NCBI GenBank assembly: GCA_028693395.1 | Contig: JAQUVJ010000003.1 | Coordinates: forward strand, 2,298-66,297 | Source: Candidatus Nanoarchaeia archaeon | Lineage (GTDB): Archaea; Nanobdellota; Nanobdellia; Woesearchaeales; JAQUVJ01 | Reading direction: 5' to 3' | DNA: 64,000 bases | Part shown: one piece after another, positions 1 through 64,000 of the stretch | Numbering within the stretch: the first letter of the stretch is position 1 | Layout: each line of letters starts with the position of its first letter | Position numbers and translations under genes: made by a program | The notes under the pieces: generated by a model | Seen by the model: the letters and a program-made list of their open reading frames with translations, nothing else | Told to the model about the DNA's origin: nothing | The model's database searches: none

Positions 1-335
1 ACTAAACAAACAGCATGATTCCAAAACAAACCAGAAAAAGTTTTCATTTTAAATTTTGATATTATTTTTGAATCATAATTTCTTTTTTCTAAAAGATGTT
101 TGAGCACAATAGCATTTTCTAAACATCCTAAAGTAACTTTACTAAATATTATTTCATTTGCATTTCTTTTTAAATACATCTGATTAAAATTTAATAAATT
201 TCCTTTTTCATCATATTTTAATTTTTCATATTTATTTTTAGGTTTATTTTTTTTTGCATTTTTTAAATTTTTATTAATCCAATTTATACATTCAAAAAAA
301 TATGTATAATCATTTTCTAAAAAATTATCAACCAT
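1..335 (-). CDS. Transglutaminase-like cysteine protease (lasso-peptide B2 / McjB C-terminal-like, PF13471-like). Partial: the 3' end runs off the left window edge.
   Basis: Not in the ORF track; I translated it by hand. It reads MVDNFLENDYTYFFECINWINKNLKNAKKNKPKNKYEKLKYDEKGNLLNFNQMYLKRNANEIIFSKVTLGCLENAIVLKHLLEKRNYDSKIISKFKMKTFSGLFWNHAVCL with no stop before position 1. The segment GCLENAIVLKHLLEKRNYDSKII...FWNHAVC matches the Cys...(about 35 aa)...HAW pattern of the Transglut_core3 family. Its ATG (333-335) overlaps the stop of the upstream rSAM gene (ATGGTTGA). Confidence 0.55.
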   Translation of the reverse strand, partial: MVDNFLENDYTYFFECINWINKNLKNAKKNKPKNKYEKLKYDEKGNLLNFNQMYLKRNANEIIFSKVTLGCLENAIVLKHLLEKRNYDSKIISKFKMKTFSGLFWNHAVCL

Positions 336-1395
336 TAATAACATCACCTAAATCTTTTTTTATAACACTAAATAATGTTTTATAAAGTTTACAAAATGGC
401 GTTTTTTCTGAAGATCTATTTGTTAAGCTATCGGAATAACATCCTCCATTACAATTATCTAAAAATTCACAACCATTGCATTCTTGATATATTTTTTTAT
501 AATGTACATATTGCTTTTTAATAACATCTGACCTTAATATTTCTTCCAGTTTTGTTTCCAATATATTTCCTAACTTAAAATCATTATTATTTACAAGACG
601 ATTACAAACATATAGATCACCTAAAGAATCTAATGCTAAAAAAGAAAAACAAGATTCACAAGACAATGAACAAACATTACTTCTATTGAATAATAAACTT
701 TCAGTCATTTCTACAAAAGGATTTAAAATAATTCTTTTATCATCATTTTTCCATATTTCATAAAGATTTCTATATATTTCAATAACTTTATCAATATTAA
801 AAGAAAAATTCTTAGAATTTTTACCCATTCTTATATATGGATTTAAATTTGCTTTTTCAGTTATATCAATTAAATTTTCATATAATTTTTCTTCTAATCC
901 AAAAAAACTATCACTAATAACAGATATAGTTGAATAATTTATTTTATAATATTTTAACATATCAATAGCATTCAAAACTTTATCAAAACTTTCATCTCCA
1001 TTTTTAAAAAATCGAAAATTATTATGAATTTCCCTTATTGGTTCTAAACTTATTCCGACTTTCATTTTTGTTAATTCAAAAAGTTTTACAAAATTCTCAT
1101 CAATTAAAGTACCATTTGTTTGTATAGATTGTTTTATATCAGATTTATCAAAATATTTTTTCAAAACCTTATTTGCTTCATAAAAAAAATCATATCCAGC
1201 AAGAGTTGGTTCTCCACCATGCCAAATAATTCCCAATTTTTTTATTCCTACTCTTTTTGATTCACTAAATAATCTATCCAATGTATCTATATTTACAATA
1301 TTATTTTTTCTTGAATCCCTATAACAATACAAACAATCAAGGTTACAATTATCTGTAACATGAATTAAAAAATTTTGTCTATACAGAAAAAACAC
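328..1395 (-). CDS. Radical SAM enzyme with a C-terminal SPASM domain (peptide-modifying / anSME-like maturase)
   Basis: The N-terminal CNLDCLYC is a CX3CX2C radical SAM cluster motif, and HGGEPTL is present. A complete SPASM signature is present: CFSFLALDSLGDLYVC (CX9GX4C), then CNGCEFLDNCNGGC (CX2CX5CX3C), then a later FC. The start is GTG, 3 nt after the stop of the upstream small ORF. There is no N-terminal RRE/PqqD-like extension. Confidence 0.85.
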   Translation of the reverse strand: MFFLYRQNFLIHVTDNCNLDCLYCYRDSRKNNIVNIDTLDRLFSESKRVGIKKLGIIWHGGEPTLAGYDFFYEANKVLKKYFDKSDIKQSIQTNGTLIDENFVKLFELTKMKVGISLEPIREIHNNFRFFKNGDESFDKVLNAIDMLKYYKINYSTISVISDSFFGLEEKLYENLIDITEKANLNPYIRMGKNSKNFSFNIDKVIEIYRNLYEIWKNDDKRIILNPFVEMTESLLFNRSNVCSLSCESCFSFLALDSLGDLYVCNRLVNNNDFKLGNILETKLEEILRSDVIKKQYVHYKKIYQECNGCEFLDNCNGGCYSDSLTNRSSEKTPFCKLYKTLFSVIKKDLGDVING

Positions 1396-1398
1396 CTT

Positions 1399-1665
1399 TC
1401 ATTTTCCATCTGAATACACATCCCAATGACTTCCCCATCCATCATTATCACTATGTGTGTCATAATGTTGAGAATATACATTAGAATTTACGTAAAAAGG
1501 TTTTGGCTTTATTGGTAAATCTAATTCATTTATTCCTAGAACTGAGACTAAAAATACATCTTCTGATTTTTCAAAAATTTCATTCCTTTTTGATTCAAAA
1601 GACATAATTATATCCACCAAATTACCTGATTTTTCTTCTTTTTTTAATATATGCATATAAACCAC
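1399..1665 (-). CDS. Candidate RiPP precursor peptide (Cys-free, aromatic/Asp-rich C-terminus). The likely true start is the ATG at 1605 (68 aa) or at 1656.
   Basis: This small ORF sits directly upstream of the SPASM rSAM gene and is coupled to it by a 3 nt gap. The C-terminus is FYVNSNVYSQHYDTHSDNDGWGSHWDVYSDGK. A GGTGG Shine-Dalgarno-like motif (1614-1618, minus strand) lies 8 nt before the ATG at 1605. The track start at 1665 is GTG. I recognise no homolog. Confidence 0.45.
   Translation of the reverse strand: MVYMHILKKEEKSGNLVDIIMSFESKRNEIFEKSEDVFLVSVLGINELDLPIKPKPFYVNSNVYSQHYDTHSDNDGWGSHWDVYSDGK
1614..1618 (-). promoter_or_regulatory. SD-like GGTGG upstream of the internal ATG (1605) of the candidate precursor ORF
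   Basis: The minus strand reads ttGGTGGAtataattATG. The same GGTGA/GGTGG-type motif precedes radA, the EF-1beta gene, rps15, tatA and the DUF5320-like gene in this window. Confidence 0.4.
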
Positions 1666-1877: not shown

Positions 1878-2729
1878 ATGATAATCAATCTAGACAAAAC
1901 ATCAACAAAAGAAGATGTAGGAAATAAAGCATATAATCTAATGCTATTAAAAAAATATAATTATAATGTTCCTAATGGAATAGTCATTTCATCTAAATAT
2001 ACAAATACTTTAATAAAAAATATTAAAGAAAAAGTTTTAAAAAATCTAAACGATCAAATCATGTCAAATAAAAAAAATTTTGAAAAATTTATAAAAGAAA
2101 TAAACAATGATTTTAATAAATTAAAATTAGATGAAGAATTAATAAAAGATATAAAAAATCAATTAACAAAAAACAAAACTAAAAAATTCGTAGTAAGAAG
2201 CAGTACTAATTTTGAAGATTCGAAAAATTTCTCTTTTGCAGGACAATTTGATTCATTTTTAAATGTTAAAATTGAAGAATTAGAAAAATACATTTTAAAA
2301 TGTATAAAATCTACTTTTTCAAGAAGAATGTTAAAATACACTTTCTTAAATAAAATAAAATTAGATAATATTTCCATATCTGTAATAATTCAAGAAATGA
2401 TTATTGGAAAATATAGTGGAATTGCATTTTCAAAAAATCCAATTAATAATAATGAAAACGAAATAATAATTGATATCGGTCCTGGACTTTGCAATAATTA
2501 TGTATCAGGAAAGAAAAACCCAAACACATATATATTAAAAAAAAATGAAAACATAAAAACTTGTCTTTCCATAGAAAATAAAATAAAAAACGAAGATGAA
2601 ATACTAAAAACAATAAAAAAAAATATATTAGAAATTGAAAAAAAATTTGAAAATTTCATAGATATTGAATTTACATTTGATAAAGAAAATAATTTTTTTA
2701 TTTTACAAGCAAGACCAATAACAAATTAA
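1878..2729 (+). CDS. Stand-alone PEP synthase / pyruvate phosphate dikinase N-terminal ATP-grasp domain protein (PPDK_N, PF01326-like)
   Basis: VGNKAYNLMLLKKYNYNVPNGIVIS matches the GGKxxNL...G.PVP.GF.I motif. VVRSSTNFEDSKNFSFAGQFDSFLNV matches VRSSAxxEDxxxxSFAGQ..t.LNV. The C-terminal IDIEFTFDKENNFFILQARPIT matches DIEWa...l.ivQaRP.T. At 283 aa there is no phospho-His swivel domain and no PEP-binding domain. Confidence 0.8.
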   Translation: MIINLDKTSTKEDVGNKAYNLMLLKKYNYNVPNGIVISSKYTNTLIKNIKEKVLKNLNDQIMSNKKNFEKFIKEINNDFNKLKLDEELIKDIKNQLTKNKTKKFVVRSSTNFEDSKNFSFAGQFDSFLNVKIEELEKYILKCIKSTFSRRMLKYTFLNKIKLDNISISVIIQEMIIGKYSGIAFSKNPINNNENEIIIDIGPGLCNNYVSGKKNPNTYILKKNENIKTCLSIENKIKNEDEILKTIKKNILEIEKKFENFIDIEFTFDKENNFFILQARPITN

Positions 2730-3246: not shown

Positions 3247-3320
3247 TCAATAATACTTTATATCTTTATTTAAATTTATTGATGTTTTTAAATTTTTTTA
3301 ATAATATTTTTAAATTGCAT

Positions 3321-3374
<54 letters not shown>

Positions 3375-3375
<1 letters not shown>

Positions 3376-3731
3376 TATTTATTTTTTTCATCATTTACAA
3401 TAAGAGATATTCCATCAATCAATTTATACATTTGAGAGAAATCAGTACTTTCTTCTTGAATTAATTTTTTGATTTGTTTAGATAAATTTTCAACTTCGTC
3501 TATTTCGAAAGTATCTTTATATTCAAATCTTTCATGAGGATAAGCTTCTTTATATGTTATAAACGGTGTCTTTTTTAAAATATATTCTGAATTAGATAAG
3601 CCCATATAACTACGATACCAATCTTCATCTTTTAATATTAATTCTAAAGCTCCACACAATCCTCCTAAAAAATTATTATAATCATAACTTACTCCAATAT
3701 TGTTTAATTGAGGAACTTGTTTTTTATTCAT
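3375..3731 (-). CDS. Hypothetical protein (track ORF trimmed to the internal ATG)
   Basis: The N-terminal 49 aa of the track ORF 3375..3878 is a poly-F/L translation of an A-rich spacer. The sequence from MNKKQVPQLNNIGVSYDYNNF onward has normal composition. Confidence 0.45.
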
Positions 3732-3947: not shown

Positions 3948-5063
3948 ATGTCCTATGAAATCAAAAAGAAATATGACGACTTTATCGTAATTGAAATTCC
4001 TAATGCAAACATAAAAATAGAAGATACTCAAGAATCTCCAAACAAAATCACACAATCTAAAAAAGGATTAATTGCATTAATGATAAAAAAAGATATTGAT
4101 TTTTATAAAGCAAAACATCACTTAGAAAATTATGCGAAATTTACATTTAATGGTATAAAAGATAAAACTGCTTTAACATATCAACTAATAGAAATTAACA
4201 AAATATTAAAACCAATTCAAGAAGATAATCTTATAGAAATAAAATCACCAAAACAAGTAGAAAAATTATTAGATTTTATGCAAAAAAAACAAGAACATAT
4301 TGAATTAGAAGATCTTTATATTCCAGAAAAAAACATCGCAATTATTCCACTTTTCTATGCACAAAACAAAGTTTTTCCAGGAAATCTTGAAAAAAATTAT
4401 TTTATAATCAATCTATACTCAGACGATGAAATTAAAATTGAACAAAATCAAGAAAATAAAAAAACACAAGATTTTACATTTATTAATTATTTTGATAAAC
4501 AAAGATTTGGGAAAAACAATTTAGAAATCTCAAAATTAATCCTAAAAAAACAATTCAATAAAGTAATAGAAAAACTAAAAGAAGAATATAATTTCTTAGA
4601 AAATACAAACGATTTAAATAAAATAAGAGACGTATTAAAAATAATTTTAAACTCTTATCAATCTTACATTTTTAATAAAACTATTTCTGAATATATTAAA
4701 CAAAATTATCCAAAAAATCTAAAAAAAATAACTATATTAGATGAAGAATATTTTATATCAAATGAAATTGACCAAAAAGAATTTCCACTAATAGGATTTG
4801 ATTCAAGAAAAGAAATCTTAAATAAAAAATATGAAGACATAATTTATGATTTAATTGAAAAAGATAAAATCACATTTAGAGATTTAATTATTAGAGAATT
4901 AAGAAATCTAAGTATGGATCACTCATTTAGAAATTCAAAAGTTACAACTAGTTTAAAAATACAAAGAGATAATAATAAATACACTTTTCAATTTTTTATA
5001 GAAAAAGGTAGTTATGCAACAATGCTAATAAAGCAATACTATGAATTAAATAAAGATGATTAA
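3948..5063 (+). CDS. truD: tRNA pseudouridine synthase TruD/Pus7 family
   Basis: NGIKDKTALTYQ matches the TruD catalytic G-x-KD-x-x-A-x-T-x-Q motif. NYFDKQRFG matches NYFG.QRFG. Confidence 0.75.
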   Translation: MSYEIKKKYDDFIVIEIPNANIKIEDTQESPNKITQSKKGLIALMIKKDIDFYKAKHHLENYAKFTFNGIKDKTALTYQLIEINKILKPIQEDNLIEIKSPKQVEKLLDFMQKKQEHIELEDLYIPEKNIAIIPLFYAQNKVFPGNLEKNYFIINLYSDDEIKIEQNQENKKTQDFTFINYFDKQRFGKNNLEISKLILKKQFNKVIEKLKEEYNFLENTNDLNKIRDVLKIILNSYQSYIFNKTISEYIKQNYPKNLKKITILDEEYFISNEIDQKEFPLIGFDSRKEILNKKYEDIIYDLIEKDKITFRDLIIRELRNLSMDHSFRNSKVTTSLKIQRDNNKYTFQFFIEKGSYATMLIKQYYELNKDD

Positions 5064-5438: not shown

Positions 5439-6719
5439 TTATTTTTTTAGAGGATCTCTTAAAGTTAAAACATAACTTCCTTCTTCTCTACTTTTTGGAA
5501 AATATGTTCTTGCCGCTTCTTGAATATCTTTAGGAGTTATTTTTTTTACTTGTTCTAAATATTCCAATTGTGAAAAATCATAATTTTCAGCAAGATATAT
5601 CATACCACTTAATTTTCTAACATCTTTAATGTCTTTATACATTCTGTATTCTATTCTTTTTTTTACATATTCTAATTCTTCTTCTGAAACAAGAGTTTCT
5701 CTTAATTGAGACATTACATCAAAAATTAAATCTATTGCATAATCAGATTTTAAAGATTTAATATTTCCTTTTATTGATAATTCTCCATAATTTACTTCAG
5801 AAAAATTTAAAGATTTAATATTGTATGCCAAACCTTCTTTTCTACTAATAAGTTTAAATAATCTTGAATTAGAATTTCCACAAAAAATATCATTTAAAAC
5901 ATCAACAAATGGAGTGTTTTCATTCTTCAAAGGTATTGTTGGAATACTTAAAATTAATTCGGAATTACTTTCATTTGCATTTATTTTATTTAATAAATCA
6001 GGAGCTTTATGATGAAAAAACTTTACATGATTTATTAATTTATTTTCTGGTATAATAAATTTATCAAATTCTGATTTTCTATATTTTCCAAAATACGAAT
6101 CTATTATTTCTTCAATATTTTTTGGGATTCCTCCTATTACATTTAAAAATACATTATTAATATTATAATTTCTAGTATAAAAATCTCGAATTGTTTGAAT
6201 ATCAAAACTCTTAAGCATCATTTCATTTCCAAGAACTTCCCTTAACATTAAAGAATTTTTTCCTAAAAAAGATTCTTTATGTAATTTATCATGAAAATAA
6301 TTTGGTTTACTTAATTTATTTGAAATTTCTCTTAAAACCCTTTGTCTTTCTCGTTCTATTTTTTCAAGATCAAATCTTTGATTAAATACTATTTCAGAAA
6401 AATAATCTAAAATTTGTAAAAAGTCATCTTTTAAAGAATCAACATAAAATAATGTTCTTTTTAAACTTGTAGAAGCATTAGATTCGCCAAAAGTATTCTT
6501 TATTTTTTCAATTTCTAATGGAGAATATTTTTTTGACCCAGCATTGTTAACAATATGTTCTAAAAAATGTGCAAGTCCATCTTCATCTTTTTTTTCACTT
6601 GTAGCACCACTATTTACAATTAGTTCAACATAAACTGTTGGTTCATCGTTTTCTTTATAATTAACTTTAAAGCCATTATCTAATTGTAATTGTTCATATC
6701 TTAAAGCATCTTCCAACAT
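5439..6719 (-). CDS. M16 family (pitrilysin-like) zinc peptidase
   Basis: HFLEHIV is the inverted HxxEH zinc motif. The length and two-domain layout are typical. Confidence 0.8.
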   Translation of the reverse strand: MLEDALRYEQLQLDNGFKVNYKENDEPTVYVELIVNSGATSEKKDEDGLAHFLEHIVNNAGSKKYSPLEIEKIKNTFGESNASTSLKRTLFYVDSLKDDFLQILDYFSEIVFNQRFDLEKIERERQRVLREISNKLSKPNYFHDKLHKESFLGKNSLMLREVLGNEMMLKSFDIQTIRDFYTRNYNINNVFLNVIGGIPKNIEEIIDSYFGKYRKSEFDKFIIPENKLINHVKFFHHKAPDLLNKINANESNSELILSIPTIPLKNENTPFVDVLNDIFCGNSNSRLFKLISRKEGLAYNIKSLNFSEVNYGELSIKGNIKSLKSDYAIDLIFDVMSQLRETLVSEEELEYVKKRIEYRMYKDIKDVRKLSGMIYLAENYDFSQLEYLEQVKKITPKDIQEAARTYFPKSREEGSYVLTLRDPLKK

Positions 6720-60487: not shown

Positions 60488-61813
60488 TTAATGGTTATTA
60501 CTATAAATTTCAATTTCTTGAGATAATTTATTCATGTATTCTTGAATTTCTTTTTTATGATTTTCGTCATAAAATAAATAATCGTAAAATATATTGTATT
60601 TTATTAGAAAAGGTCTTTGATATATTGTGTTCCCGTCTTTTGTTGGTATTTGATTTTCAAAGTTAAATTTTACTCCTCTTGGTGGAGGTCCTACTTTTTT
60701 TATTATTTCTAATAATTTTTGCATCTCTCTAAAAAAATCATGTTCTAAAACCATGTAAAATTTTGGATTATTATCATAGTTTATTTCAACATAATGTTCA
60801 TTACTATTCAAATTTGAAAATGTATTTTTTAATTTATTTTTGTAACTTCCAATTCCTAAAACAGGATCAACATGTCCAGCCATTGATAATAAATCATTTT
60901 CTGATGTTAAAACCTCATCCATTCCTTTAATAAATTTAAATATTTCAAAATTTTGCATTTTTTTAGATAATTCTTCTTTAAAAAATCTCATAGTTTTTAA
61001 ACTTTTAAATTCCTCTTTTAAAAAATTAGAATCAAATTTATTTATTTGTCCTTCTGATTTTATTTTTAATATTTCAGATAAAGATAAGTATTCTCCTGAT
61101 AAATAAAGACTACTTGTTAAAACATCTTGAATTAAAAATTCATCATATTTTTCTTTATAATCATAATGAGTTTGAACTGTTATTTCATCAGGGTTTAATT
61201 CATATGCTAATTCTAAATCACTTCTTAATATTTTTCTATCATCTTCTTTATCATTTAAAAATCCAATTATATCATATGATACTCTTATATTTCTTTTTTT
61301 TAATTCTTCAGTTATTTTTTTTATTTCTTCAAATGTTGCAGGTATTCTGTTTTGATTTTTTAATGTTTCTTGATCAAATGTTTGAATTCCTATTATTACA
61401 TTGTCAAAATTATATTTCTTAAGAATATCTAATTGTTCCATACTCCAAAATGCTGGATGTAATTCAAATGTTTTTTCTCCTCTTTGTTTAAAATTTGGAA
61501 GAGATGAAAATAGTTTTTCTAATCTTTGTGTATCTAAAAGACTTGGAGTTCCTCCTCCAAAAAACCATGTTTTAATTTCTTTTTTTTCTAAGATATCTTT
61601 ATACATTTCAATTAATTTTGGTAAATATTTGTCATAATATCTTTCATATTCTTGCTGATTAAACAAAGTTCCTTTATAATAACAGAATTTACAGATAGAT
61701 TTACAAAATGGACTATGAATATAAACATTAATAGGTTTATTTACATTTTCCCATTTCTCTTCTATTTCTTCAAAAGAAATTTCTCTATATATTTCTGAAA
61801 ATTTTTTTGTCAT
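60488..61813 (-). CDS. HemN-like radical SAM enzyme (class C / coproporphyrinogen oxidase-like family)
   Basis: VYIHSPFCKSICKFCYY carries the CX3CX2C motif in the HemN IHIPFC context. FFGGGTPSLL and GIQTFD are present. Confidence 0.8.
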   Translation of the reverse strand: MTKKFSEIYREISFEEIEEKWENVNKPINVYIHSPFCKSICKFCYYKGTLFNQQEYERYYDKYLPKLIEMYKDILEKKEIKTWFFGGGTPSLLDTQRLEKLFSSLPNFKQRGEKTFELHPAFWSMEQLDILKKYNFDNVIIGIQTFDQETLKNQNRIPATFEEIKKITEELKKRNIRVSYDIIGFLNDKEDDRKILRSDLELAYELNPDEITVQTHYDYKEKYDEFLIQDVLTSSLYLSGEYLSLSEILKIKSEGQINKFDSNFLKEEFKSLKTMRFFKEELSKKMQNFEIFKFIKGMDEVLTSENDLLSMAGHVDPVLGIGSYKNKLKNTFSNLNSNEHYVEINYDNNPKFYMVLEHDFFREMQKLLEIIKKVGPPPRGVKFNFENQIPTKDGNTIYQRPFLIKYNIFYDYLFYDENHKKEIQEYMNKLSQEIEIYSNNH

Positions 61814-61827
61814 TTTTTATTTTAGTT

Positions 61828-62841
61828 TTATTTTTTTATTAATGAATCTTTAAATTTTTTCATTTGTTCTTCTGTTGCTGAATTTAATTCTTCATATCCA
61901 TAATCCCAAGGAGCACACATTCCTTTTAATGTGTCTGATTTTATTTTTGGTCTAAATGGTTGATTTGTTTTACATTGTCTACATCTTTCTACTGCTGAAC
62001 TACAATCAATTACTGAAAAATGGTAACCTTTATTTATTACTTCTTCCATTATATCATAGACTAAACCTTCATCATACATATGATAAAAATGGTCTTTATA
62101 TGCTCTCCATTTATCTTCTGGATAACATTTTTCAATTGCATCTCTATTATAATCTGAAATTTGAACTTCAACCATATCTAAATGTTTTAATCCTATTTTT
62201 TCAAAAAATGGTAATAATTCCATTATTTCTTCACGATGATGTGGCCATGATGGTTCTTCAACTGTTACAAAAAATCCCATTTCTTTTGCTAATTCCATAT
62301 TTTTTAATACTAATTTAGAAAAATTTGAAGCACTTAAATGAAATCTTATTTCATGAACACCTAAATTTTCTTTAAGTCTAATTAACATTTCTTTATTTGC
62401 TAATATTCCATTTGTATACAAAAAACGATATTGATGAATTCCTGTTTGTTTTTCCATATTATCTAAAATTAATGCTATTTTTTCTAATTCATTAATGTAA
62501 TACAATGTTTCTCCAGAACTTTGATATGAAAATGTTGTTGCTTTATATTGTTCTGGTCTTAAACTTTGGTAAAAGAAATCTGAAATTTTATTTTTTATTG
62601 AATCTGCTGATTCTTCTAATCTATTTGGATCGTAATAACAATAAGGACATTTACACATGCATTGTGTTCCTATTTGGATTCCTGAACCAGGTTCTTGAGT
62701 AAAACACATTCTACAACCTGGTGATATTTCTCCAACATGAAAACAATGGCCATCAGCATCTCTTTTTGCTCCCATTTTTAATAATTTTTCTTGTCTTGCT
62801 AATTTTTCTTGCATTATTTCTTGATATGGAACGACTCTCAT
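61828..62841 (-). CDS. Radical SAM protein (PFL-activase-related, COG2108-like) with an extra N-terminal Cys cluster
   Basis: GTQCMCKCPYCYY contains CX3CX2C. An upstream CFHVGEISPGCRMCF is present. C-terminal Cys residues occur in IDCSSAVERCRQC. The composition is less Lys/Asn-biased than the neighbouring genes. Confidence 0.7.
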   Translation of the reverse strand: MRVVPYQEIMQEKLARQEKLLKMGAKRDADGHCFHVGEISPGCRMCFTQEPGSGIQIGTQCMCKCPYCYYDPNRLEESADSIKNKISDFFYQSLRPEQYKATTFSYQSSGETLYYINELEKIALILDNMEKQTGIHQYRFLYTNGILANKEMLIRLKENLGVHEIRFHLSASNFSKLVLKNMELAKEMGFFVTVEEPSWPHHREEIMELLPFFEKIGLKHLDMVEVQISDYNRDAIEKCYPEDKWRAYKDHFYHMYDEGLVYDIMEEVINKGYHFSVIDCSSAVERCRQCKTNQPFRPKIKSDTLKGMCAPWDYGYEELNSATEEQMKKFKDSLIKK

Positions 62842-62909
62842 TTTTATCTCTCTTTAAAATTATCTTTTTTAATTTAAATGTTTTGATAAATTTAACTTAT
62901 AAAATTTCA

Positions 62910-64000
62910 TTAATTGTATATCATATGAACACAATTAGAAATTTCTTTATATAATACATTTATTCTTTCTAATATCTCAAAATTATTTGGATTTTCTTTT
63001 TCATAATATTTTAATAATTTCAATAACTTTTTTAATGTTTCATTTTTACCATAATTTATATCAAAATTTTTATTTTCTATTGATTTTATTGAGAATTTTT
63101 CATAATTTTTTTCAATATATGATTTTGGTGAAATAAAATAATCATAAAATTCAAATGAAATATTGCTAAAATCTTTATTTATTTTTTTTAAAAATTTTAA
63201 TTCTTCATAAAATATTTCTATTGTTTGACTTGGAATTCCAACTATATAAAATAATTTTACACTAATTTTTTGTTTATTTAATTCTTTTAATAAACTATAA
63301 ATTATTTTCAAAGATGGCATCTTTTTGTTAATATTTTTTGATAATGTTGGATGTAAACACTCAATACCAAATGCAACATTATTAAAACCTGCTTTTTTCA
63401 TTTTTTTTACTTGTTCAATTGTTAAACCATCAAAAGCTAAATCAGAATTTTGAATTTTTATTTTATTATTTATTTTTATTAAACCATCTAATAATTTATC
63501 AAATTCAAATTTATTTAATGTAGAATCATTAAATCTAATACTTTTTACACCTATTTGATTATAATATTTAAACCATTCAATTAAAACATCTCTTTTTAAT
63601 AAATTATATCTTGAAAGTGCTGGACTACTACAAAAATAACAATTATTAGCACAACCTCTTGATGATGATATCATAATATTATAATTTAAATATTCTAACT
63701 CATCTTTACTATATTTTGGTACATCATCTTTTGTTAATTTTGATAAATTATAAAAATGATTTGAATTATAAAATTCCTTTTCATTAATTAATAATTGATA
63801 CAAAGACTCTTCAAAATCTCCTCTTGTACAATAAAAACCCATTGATTTTAATGATTCATATGTAAAATCATTTAAAATTACTTCAGGGCCTCCAAAAGTT
63901 ATTTTTGAATTTGGGTATTTTTCTTTTAAAAAAAGTGCAATTATTGGTTGTATTGACAAATAAGCATCATAAAGAGAAAAACAATAAATATCATATCCTT
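62910..64000 (-). CDS. Cobalamin-binding (class B) radical SAM enzyme. Partial: the 5' end runs off the right window edge.
   Basis: SSSRGCANNCYFCSSP is a CX3CX2C motif. The track start at 63959 is TTG. The frame stays open upstream to the window end and reads GYDIYCFSLYDAYLSIQPIIALFLKEKYPNSKITFGGPEV, which is typical of a B12-binding domain. Confidence 0.75.
   Translation of the reverse strand, partial: GYDIYCFSLYDAYLSIQPIIALFLKEKYPNSKITFGGPEVILNDFTYESLKSMGFYCTRGDFEESLYQLLINEKEFYNSNHFYNLSKLTKDDVPKYSKDELEYLNYNIMISSSRGCANNCYFCSSPALSRYNLLKRDVLIEWFKYYNQIGVKSIRFNDSTLNKFEFDKLLDGLIKINNKIKIQNSDLAFDGLTIEQVKKMKKAGFNNVAFGIECLHPTLSKNINKKMPSLKIIYSLLKELNKQKISVKLFYIVGIPSQTIEIFYEELKFLKKINKDFSNISFEFYDYFISPKSYIEKNYEKFSIKSIENKNFDINYGKNETLKKLLKLLKYYEKENPNNFEILERINVLYKEISNCVHMIYN

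Follow-up and report, generated by a model that had tools for sequence, protein, structure and literature searches.

A gene of 68 codons near one end of a contig from a Candidatus Nanoarchaeia archaeon raises the question of what its short product is, and what the enzyme encoded directly behind it might do to that product. The window, by which we mean the whole stretch of 64,000 nucleotides analysed here (JAQUVJ010000003.1, positions 2,298 to 66,297), belongs to a 68,408-bp GenBank contig of a metagenome-assembled genome (MAG) whose class is placed in the phylum Nanobdellota (DPANN). The small gene heads a three-gene cassette, followed by the gene for a radical S-adenosylmethionine (rSAM) enzyme with a SPASM domain and by a third gene, and GenBank gives none of them a function (hypothetical protein, SPASM domain-containing protein and hypothetical protein). 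A first-pass annotation, made from the letters alone, had proposed that the end of the small product is a Cys-free core peptide with repeated aromatic-x-Asp triplets, for which three-residue cyclophane chemistry on His, Tyr and Trp rings would be the best fit.

Our reading is that the first two genes very probably form the precursor-maturase pair of a modified-peptide pathway. We infer that the peptide is the substrate of the rSAM, and likewise the type of bond and the number of rings; that the modification consists of three-residue, aromatic-to-Asp-C-beta cyclophanes of the triceptide kind has, in our estimate, about an even chance. In the proposed scheme the 68-aa product would be the precursor, with a leader (residues 1-33, carrying LGINELDLPIK), a linker (34-43) and a Cys-free core (44-68). 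Within every aromatic-x-Asp (or Ser/Gln) triplet a 5'-deoxyadenosyl radical would take the C-beta hydrogen of the third residue, and the carbon radical so formed would add to the ring of the first residue (His, Trp or Tyr). As many as five or six three-residue cyclophanes would then stand back to back, with 2 Da lost per ring (-2 Da), as in triceptides. The 312-aa protein encoded downstream, a probable transglutaminase-fold peptidase, would remove the leader. The window peptide is most likely a substrate for ring-forming cross-links of a sort known in bacteria and not yet shown in archaea.

The small gene and its conserved core

Read on the minus strand, positions 1399-1494 translate to YVNSNVYSQHYDTHSDNDGWGSHWDVYSDGK, 31 codons followed by TGA. 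The first-pass annotation had located its core peptide here without giving the strand and had quoted 32 residues as 31, the codon of F37 (1495-1497) falling outside its coordinates; the sequence itself is present and its counts were right, with four aromatic-x-Asp triplets (HYD, HSD, HWD and YSD), three aromatic-x-polar triplets (YVN, YSQ and WGS) and no Cys anywhere in the 68 aa. When the 32-residue segment was shuffled 100,000 times the mean was 1.5 aromatic-x-Asp triplets, and because four or more were reached in 2% of the shuffles (P=0.02) the pattern is only mildly unusual for its composition. The precursor is nevertheless the sole small open reading frame (ORF; 25-150 aa, six frames) in the window with at least three [HYW]-x-D triplets per 30 residues. 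The real significance of the triplets comes from elsewhere, namely that their aromatic and Asp columns are invariant across three lineages and that related enzymes carry the same triplets beside them.

Scans of metagenome and species-representative genome collections gave 146 loci, which we ranked by similarity to the window rSAM; loci are named here by L numbers. L003 (rSAM 94-95% identical) has a precursor that differs by two replacements, V39I and N40K, both in the linker. In L002 (rSAM 63% identical) the N-terminal half is largely different and the linker is rewritten, with the leader keeping the motif ALGVNKLEIPIK where the window has VLGINELDLPIK (pattern LG(I/V)N(E/K)L(D/E)(L/I)PIK). 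The last 23 residues of L002, QHYDTHSDNDGWGDHWDVYSDGK, show one replacement (S59D) against the window, so that the two share the pattern QHYDTHSDNDGWGxHWDVYSDGK. At the codon level, the last 24 codons differ by 6 synonymous changes, a TGA-to-TAA change of stop and 1 replacement, while the ten codons 5' of the conserved core differ by 8 replacements and 2 synonymous changes. Synonymous changes outnumber replacements in the core, unlike in the codons before it; such a pattern marks selection on the encoded core and supports translation, and the small ORF is a real gene under protein-level selection.

The more distant L004 (rSAM 34% identical, 51% G+C) extends the comparison. Its precursor ORF overlaps the rSAM start by 7 nt and encodes the core QHVDLEHVDNGYVDSHTDTYYNDWGG, and across the window, L003, L002 and L004 the columns Q46, H47, D49, H51, D53, N54, H60, D62 and Y64 are invariant, which include the aromatic and Asp positions of the triplets. 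The Ser residues of the core vary (S59D in L002; HVD and YYN in L004). The first-pass annotation had expected neighbouring homologues to concentrate their conservation at the aromatic-x-Asp positions and to vary in the linker, and both expectations are borne out by these alignments (L002 and L004 for the core, 8 of 10 linker codons replaced in L002). A conserved leader, also expected, holds for the LGINELDLPIK-type motif kept in L002, with the rest of the leader diverging; as to the aromatic-x-polar triplets, YSQ is kept (as YAQ in L002) and YVN is not kept in relatives, and the conserved core starts at Y44 rather than at F37. Candidate ring motifs, counted as aromatic-x-Asp/Ser/Gln triplets, then number 5-6 within residues 44-66, and the variable linker probably contains the leader cleavage site. 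At L004 2969-3247 (+) the precursor continues beyond the core with a stretch rich in Ser and Gly and ends in a hydrophobic C-terminal tail, TCLVILAIFALLAIITEC; because of these additions the L004 sequence suggests a precursor that may be membrane-anchored or follower-bearing. No precursor homologues beyond the three known lineages came to light when 5.8 billion clusters were searched with a word-indexed profile and 1.84 billion representatives exhaustively with HMMER.

The GenBank model of the precursor is longer, 88 aa from a GTG at 1665 (MDD3263479.1, hypothetical protein). Between the window and L003, the codons at -20 to -1 before the ATG at 1605 vary more than the 68 that follow. Gene calls on a Logan contig include an identical product.

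There would be no separate small gene at all if the ORF had arisen by chance in AT-rich DNA, or if reading through its TGA merely lengthened the rSAM at its N-terminus. We examined recoded TGA because precursor and rSAM lie in the same frame: on the minus strand the precursor stop (TGA, 1399-1401) and the rSAM start (GTG, 1393-1395) are separated by one AAG codon, read-through would give a 425-aa fusion, and the G+C content of the window, 21%, is in the range in which some lineages recode TGA. Under table 11, the window holds 63 ORFs of at least 100 aa and is about 89% coding. TGA ends 13 of its 50 large ORFs, reading it as sense hardly extends the long ones, and no UGA-reading tRNA occurs among the tRNAs of the window, where the single tRNA is a tRNA-Gln. 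TGA is a genuine stop in the window. Since it is an ordinary stop here, and since the L002 precursor ends in TAA and in another frame than the L002 rSAM, the precursor is a separate gene and the read-through fusion was ruled out; together with the strong protein-level conservation of the core, this leaves a chance or read-through origin extremely improbable.

The radical SAM/SPASM enzyme

The second gene encodes an enzyme with Pfam matches to Radical_SAM (61 bits) and SPASM (34 bits), both over the cut-off, and its CX3CX2C motif and Cys-rich SPASM domain place it in the rSAM/SPASM superfamily. The eight SPASM Cys residues would be enough for two auxiliary Fe-S clusters, and there is no N-terminal RRE (peptide-recognition) domain in the protein. 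Among NCBIfam models the two best scores, anaerobic sulfatase maturase (TIGR03942, 206.5 bits against an equivalog cut-off of 349.45) and DynA, the maturase that makes the three-residue rings of dynobactin (NF041298, 202.6 bits against 450), are nearly equal, and PapB comes third (133 bits against 340). The triceptide-forming families follow, these being GrrM/OscB (128 bits, cut-off 310), AmcB (122, 425), YhhB (115, 445), FxsB (96, 370) and XyeB (64, 450), so that the window rSAM is related to, yet outside, each of them. HxsB (60.6 bits, cut-off 370), DarW, DarE and a methanogen peptide-rSAM family also match below their cut-offs. The best PDB match is the anaerobic sulfatase maturase (anSME) structure 4K37, with 119 bits for the single sequence and 194 bits for the family profile; the profile also matches the triceptide synthase ChlB (98 bits) and CteB (94 bits). 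The enzyme descends from the branch that holds both sulfatase maturases and cyclophane synthases. Over their full length, cyclophane-forming rSAMs such as DarE are likewise nearest to the sulfatase maturase, and yet the active-site profile of DarE resembles that of other cyclophane formers (PMC10288494).

The enzyme might then simply be an anaerobic sulfatase maturase, turning Ser or Cys into formylglycine, or act on some other protein, and the small ORF would be an unrelated neighbour. Such a maturase is its top match in both NCBIfam and PDB, and many of its homologues carry that name. Its score of 206 bits is nevertheless far under the 349-bit cut-off, and its active site differs. In the alignment to 4K37 the window residues C242, C249 and C264 fall on the auxiliary-cluster residues Cys255, Cys261 and Cys276, and N265 falls on Asp277, the proposed catalytic base of the sulfatase maturase. 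At this position, directly after the auxiliary-cluster Cys, 76 of the 78 loci in the anSME clade have Asp and the other 2 have Glu, whereas in the window family and all 15 other deep-branching relatives it is occupied by Gly, Asn, His or Ser, with Arg, Lys or His as the next residue; most of those 15 have an aromatic-x-Asp/Asn-rich or other small ORF alongside. The Asn argues against formylglycine formation, and in the sample studied Cys-Gly/Asn-Arg versus Cys-Asp is a sequence marker that divides peptide-linked relatives from sulfatase maturases. ChlB lacks the aligned auxiliary Cys, which leaves its residue at the Asp277 position outside this comparison.

In a neighbor-joining tree of 113 loci, which carries no support values, the window family groups with L004 and L006/L007 and lies near the archaeal L075/L076/L010/L014/L011, all of them outside one large bacterial sulfatase-maturase clade. 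The peptide itself has no C/S-x-P-x-R sulfatase motif, nor the wider C/S-x-P/A-x-R form, in a search confined to the adjoining peptide; its Ser positions are not conserved, and peptide and enzyme co-occur and co-vary across lineages. Going by the score below the cut-off, the position outside the clade and the missing Asp, the window rSAM is not a sulfatase maturase, and that identity was ruled out; the broader idea that the small ORF is a bystander to this enzyme is very unlikely. L006 and L007 have a different cassette around related rSAMs (32-34% identical), in which a gene for a 37-aa peptide with the end KKSWINSYMCSA (L006 2974-3087 and L007 2949-3062, +) comes first, an Amidohydro_2 gene second and the rSAM third.

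The near-equal DynA score (203 vs 206 bits) bears on another possibility, that the pair is as we propose and the bond is not. The linkage could be C-N (His nitrogen to C-beta) or a C-O ether, as in dynobactin and darobactin, part of a larger ring, or no linkage at all, with Asp C-beta being oxidized or hydroxylated. Of the aromatic residues in the core, His is the most frequent. The related enzymes PapB and QhpD attack Asp C-beta in Asp-rich cores but join Asp to Cys sulfur. The dynobactin maturase makes a His-N-to-Tyr-C-beta bond besides a Trp-to-Asn C-C bond (PMC11002830, PMC10288494). The conserved aromatic and Asp residues are strictly spaced as i and i+2, and this, together with the 14 in-phase triplets of the related L009 peptide described below, fits three-residue rings to the third residue best; there is no Cys for thioethers, and the NSNV stretch common with dynobactin is not conserved. 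We regard a different bond as clearly the less probable choice, and three-residue cyclophanes remain our preferred chemistry.

Related peptides, the third gene and the neighborhood

Small ORFs adjoining rSAM genes were scanned in the ranked loci, and the more distant precursors were found solely in this way. The closest enzyme relatives carry small ORFs rich in aromatic-x-Asp/Asn. The clearest case is L009 (rSAM 30% identical), whose peptide reads HTD YDD YDD YSN YDN YSN YDD YSN YDD YSN YDN YND YSN YGD, that is, 14 in-phase H/Y-x-[DN] triplets where shuffling gives a mean of 6.7 and never reached 14 in 100,000 trials (P<1e-5). It is encoded at L009 194-424 (+), on a lake metagenome contig, by a 76-aa ORF ending HTDYDDYDDYSNYDNYSNYDDYSN..., 127 nt 5' of the rSAM/SPASM gene. 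Two peptides are found in L018, with the ends YADYMVYTDYTDVM and VYTDYTEHG..., and the L008 peptide, YCDDYSDSYSDDGDND, has Cys as well as Y-x-D triplets; by its sequence this distant relative could be of the ranthipeptide type (PapB/QhpD-like). No comparable peptide turned up in the small-ORF scan beside about 78 bacterial loci of the sulfatase-maturase type.

The archaeal loci L075, L076, L013 and L010 differ in having the precursor 3' of the rSAM. The peptide of L075 (uncultured archaeon; precursor at 4079-4249 (+)) contains ...SHNDHWNQYSDCFLVS, L076 (Woesearchaeota MAG) has two tandem precursor paralogues at 4007-4589 (+), one with HDEHPDHVDTYFDDTHSDYIDKYDEG, and L013 has ...YDKYQEYADAPDHWDN. 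L010 has the leader common to the archaeal group and a core (...SRWDPDYWAGD...) that is less clearly aromatic-x-Asp. The leader element of these archaeal peptides is EFxG...L.NPIL, and the leader motif of the window resembles FFGIELDLAQIRNP in L010 and EFMGLPIKVNDLSN in L076. L075 repeats the HW[DN]-x-Y-x-D block of the window core, and parts of it are seen in L004 (HTDTYYN), L076 (KYDDYCD) and L013 (HWDN).

In the window the genes are tightly packed, with 3 nt from the precursor stop to the rSAM start and an overlap of 8 nt between the third gene and the rSAM stop on the minus strand. The order precursor, rSAM, third gene is also found in L001, L002 and L003, L001 being the same contig in another assembly, which shows the third gene whole. 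The coordinates are collected in Table 1.

Table 1. Features of the cassette, in positions of the window.
Feature	Position	Strand	Basis
Third gene, N-terminal 111 codons of 312 aa (PHT94_01115, hypothetical), cut by window edge	1..335	-	full gene in L001, L002
rSAM/SPASM enzyme, 355 aa, MDD3263478.1, GTG start	328..1395	-	Pfam Radical_SAM + SPASM
SPASM region, eight conserved Cys (C242, C249, C264, C306, C309, C315, C319, C335)	391..672	-	invariant alignment columns
C264-N265-R266	598..606	-	N265 aligns with anSME Asp277 (4K37 alignment)
CX3CX2C cluster motif (C17, C21, C24)	1324..1347	-	invariant in alignment of relatives
Precursor gene, 68 aa + TGA stop, MSFESK...YSDGK	1399..1605	-	ORF listing, translation
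Conserved core, residues 44-68: YSQ HYD T HSD NDG WGS HWD V YSD GK	1402..1476	-	Cys-free
Variable linker, residues 34-43 (PKPFYVNSNV)	1477..1506	-	8/10 codons replaced in L002
Leader, residues 1-33, motif VLGINELDLPIK at 1507-1542	1507..1605	-	motif semi-conserved, rest diverges
GGTGG, Shine-Dalgarno-like, 8 nt 5' of ATG at 1605	1614..1618	-	read by eye; weak evidence

The third gene encodes an accessory protein with two members only among 5.8 billion clusters, both in this cassette, and searches of Pfam, NCBIfam, PHROGs and PDB sequences gave no match to it. Inspection of the sequence shows G-C71 at a helix start, then W-N-H107 and I-D122-P-T, in the order of a transglutaminase/papain-type Cys-His-Asp triad, and C71, H107 and D122 are invariant between the two members. 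A poor AlphaFold model built from the two sequences (confidence score, pLDDT, of 43) places Cys71 at a helix N-terminus followed by strands bearing His107 and Asp122. Foldseek against PDB gave E-values of 0.1-1, none of them significant, and transglutaminase-fold Cys-His-Asp enzymes make up nearly all of the local matches with low root-mean-square deviation (about 65-80 columns, 2.4-5.5 Å), these matches including arylamine N-acetyltransferases, the putative Cys protease 3ISR, the amide synthase GdmF, TglA and vasohibins. We consider the protein a candidate transglutaminase-fold Cys-His-Asp peptidase, and that it removes the leader is a reasonable inference, not a result. L075 and L076 have a different accessory protein after the precursor, of about 220 aa and mutually homologous, with an N-terminal GHxC, a C-terminal GH and a weak match to PF09778, a family of the papain-like clan; these proteins are possibly papain-like, and profile comparison found no similarity between them and the accessory protein of the window.

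As to the role of the product, it may not be secreted at all, and the peptide could instead be the precursor of an intracellular cofactor, or a metal-binding peptide, in the manner of pyrroloquinoline quinone (PQQ) or mycofactocin, with the cross-links pre-organizing a chelating site of His and Asp. The 23-residue core is rich in both residues and the cassette is without a transporter. DPANN archaea are host-dependent, with very small genomes, and one would be less inclined to expect a costly antibiotic pathway in a genome so reduced. M16 peptidases take part in making some modified peptides and cofactors, PQQ among them, and a two-domain M16 (insulinase-type) peptidase is encoded 4 kb from the cassette (5439-6719, -), with CBS-domain and TruD genes between and no link shown. 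However, no redox partner or dehydrogenase gene stands beside the cassette in any locus examined, and the cores differ greatly from one relative to another, as is usual for natural-product peptides but not for cofactors. A cofactor or metal role is in our judgment decidedly unlikely, and as it concerns the role of the product it is compatible with the cyclophane chemistry that we favor. That a host-dependent DPANN archaeon with a small genome keeps a three-gene investment suggests a role in host interaction or metal handling. A more far-reaching picture, speculative and unlikely as a whole, would be a modified-peptide family, mainly DPANN so far, in which one sulfatase-maturase-derived rSAM stitches 5-6 His/Trp/Tyr-x-Asp rings, including unprecedented His-to-Asp ones, back to back into one acidic core of 23 residues, giving a rigid metal-binding or host-directed product of an obligate episymbiont, with a new transglutaminase-fold peptidase to process it.

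Other observations in the window concern its general setting. Archaeal markers are present (RadA, ribosomal S13/S15 with the archaeal/eukaryotic N-domain, STT3/AglB). A scan for bacterial-type promoters and terminators gave 17 sites against 21 expected, which is uninformative given a bacterial consensus and AT-rich archaeal DNA. Divergent from the precursor gene lies a stand-alone 283-aa N-terminal ATP-binding domain of the phosphoenolpyruvate synthase/pyruvate-phosphate-dikinase type (PF01326, 173 bits) at 1878-2729 (+), and the short related contigs do not show whether this gene belongs to the cassette. A run of TAT/ATT-type triplets at 3279-3464, with ORFs reading HHHYYYYYYYYYYIIIIII, is low-complexity intergenic DNA. 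The far end (60488-63959, -) holds three successive radical SAM-domain genes (441, 337 and 349 aa), positionally unrelated to the cassette.

Comparison with known systems

A literature search found no published description of this precursor/enzyme family. Triceptides are defined as products of RRE-less rSAM/SPASM enzymes with aromatic-to-C-beta cross-links on aromatic-X-X motifs, and their putative pathways number about 3,900 (PMC11499958). YxdB joins Tyr-C3 to Asp-C-beta on Y-x-D motifs, OscB joins Trp-C7 to the C-beta of Asn or Asp, HaaB joins His-C2 to Ala-C-beta and YhhB joins Tyr and His to Arg-C-beta (PMC11002830), while HtkB joins His-C2 to Lys-C-beta (PMC11499958). Because of these examples, each element of the chemistry proposed here has a precedent except His-to-Asp. 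A 2025 survey predicted rSAM-dependent modified-peptide clusters across archaea, including DPANN, with functional characterization confined to lanthipeptides (PMC12144867).

Several points weigh against the proposed pathway. In the literature we found no precedent for His-to-Asp rings, and the comparison with YxdB, the sole Tyr-x-Asp enzyme, is one of described chemistry. No cyclophane-forming family gives the window rSAM a score that reaches its curated cut-off; the match to ChlB, the only triceptide synthase with a solved structure, is remote, and the distance tree of the 113 loci is without support values. Within the single peptide the excess of triplets over shuffled sequence is modest. 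No transporter gene is found in the cassette, and the peptidase assignment comes from a poor model and fold matches short of significance.

Among other systems, dynobactin comes close by the score of its maturase, DynA (DynB/DynE in papers), one of the two top-scoring models for the window rSAM. Dynobactin has two separate cyclophane rings, from Trp and His, in a Cys-free core (PMC11002830, PMC10288494). The window nonetheless differs from it, the score being far under the cut-off and the conserved core showing no similarity to the dynobactin core. Linker residues 39-42, NSNV (1480-1491, -), do match dynobactin A (WNSNVHSYRF), but the stretch is IKSNV in L003 and NKNFI in L002; a dynobactin-like core starting from NSNV was dropped for this variation, and the match is most likely a coincidence. 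The target of dynobactin, a Photorhabdus product, is BamA, with no evident bearing on a symbiont that is an archaeon.

The anSME structures (PDB 4K36-4K39) are the best full-length and PDB match and share the same radical SAM core and two-cluster SPASM architecture; the window enzyme departs from them in having Asn265 for Asp277 and, as its partner, a dedicated small peptide without the sulfatase motif. It is also a SPASM enzyme related to the ranthipeptide enzymes PapB and QhpD, but ranthipeptides and sactipeptides draw on a core Cys as the thioether donor, and the window precursor is Cys-free. The His-Xaa-Ser system (HxsA-D), which requires a second rSAM, HxsC, and targets a His-x-Ser repeat, has an HxsB-type maturase; the window enzyme is not of that type, and its motif is His-x-Asp.

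The closest comparison remains with the triceptides (YxdA/YxdB, OscB, HaaB/YhhB/HtkB). Here too a small precursor adjoins an RRE-less rSAM/SPASM enzyme of the sulfatase-maturase-like branch, and the core consists of several successive aromatic-x-x triplets, with third-position Asp and first-position Tyr, His or Trp each precedented and the triplet positions kept in L002 and L004. The window departs from these systems in several respects: its maturase falls in none of the recognized families (GrrM/OscB, XyeB, FxsB, YhhB, AmcB), its single core of 23 residues combines triplets of His, Trp and Tyr, with His-x-Asp dominant, and among 15 billion proteins the precursor family is confined to three lineages. 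The DPANN host, the densely packed mixed His/Trp/Tyr-x-Asp core and an accessory protein of a new sequence family are what make the cassette worth attention. If the chemistry is simply that of YxdB, this would be an incremental extension of triceptides to archaea. Of interest for enzymology is that a compact, RRE-less enzyme would handle mixed His/Trp/Tyr-x-Asp triplets packed back to back, and the very short precursor makes an easily synthesized test case.

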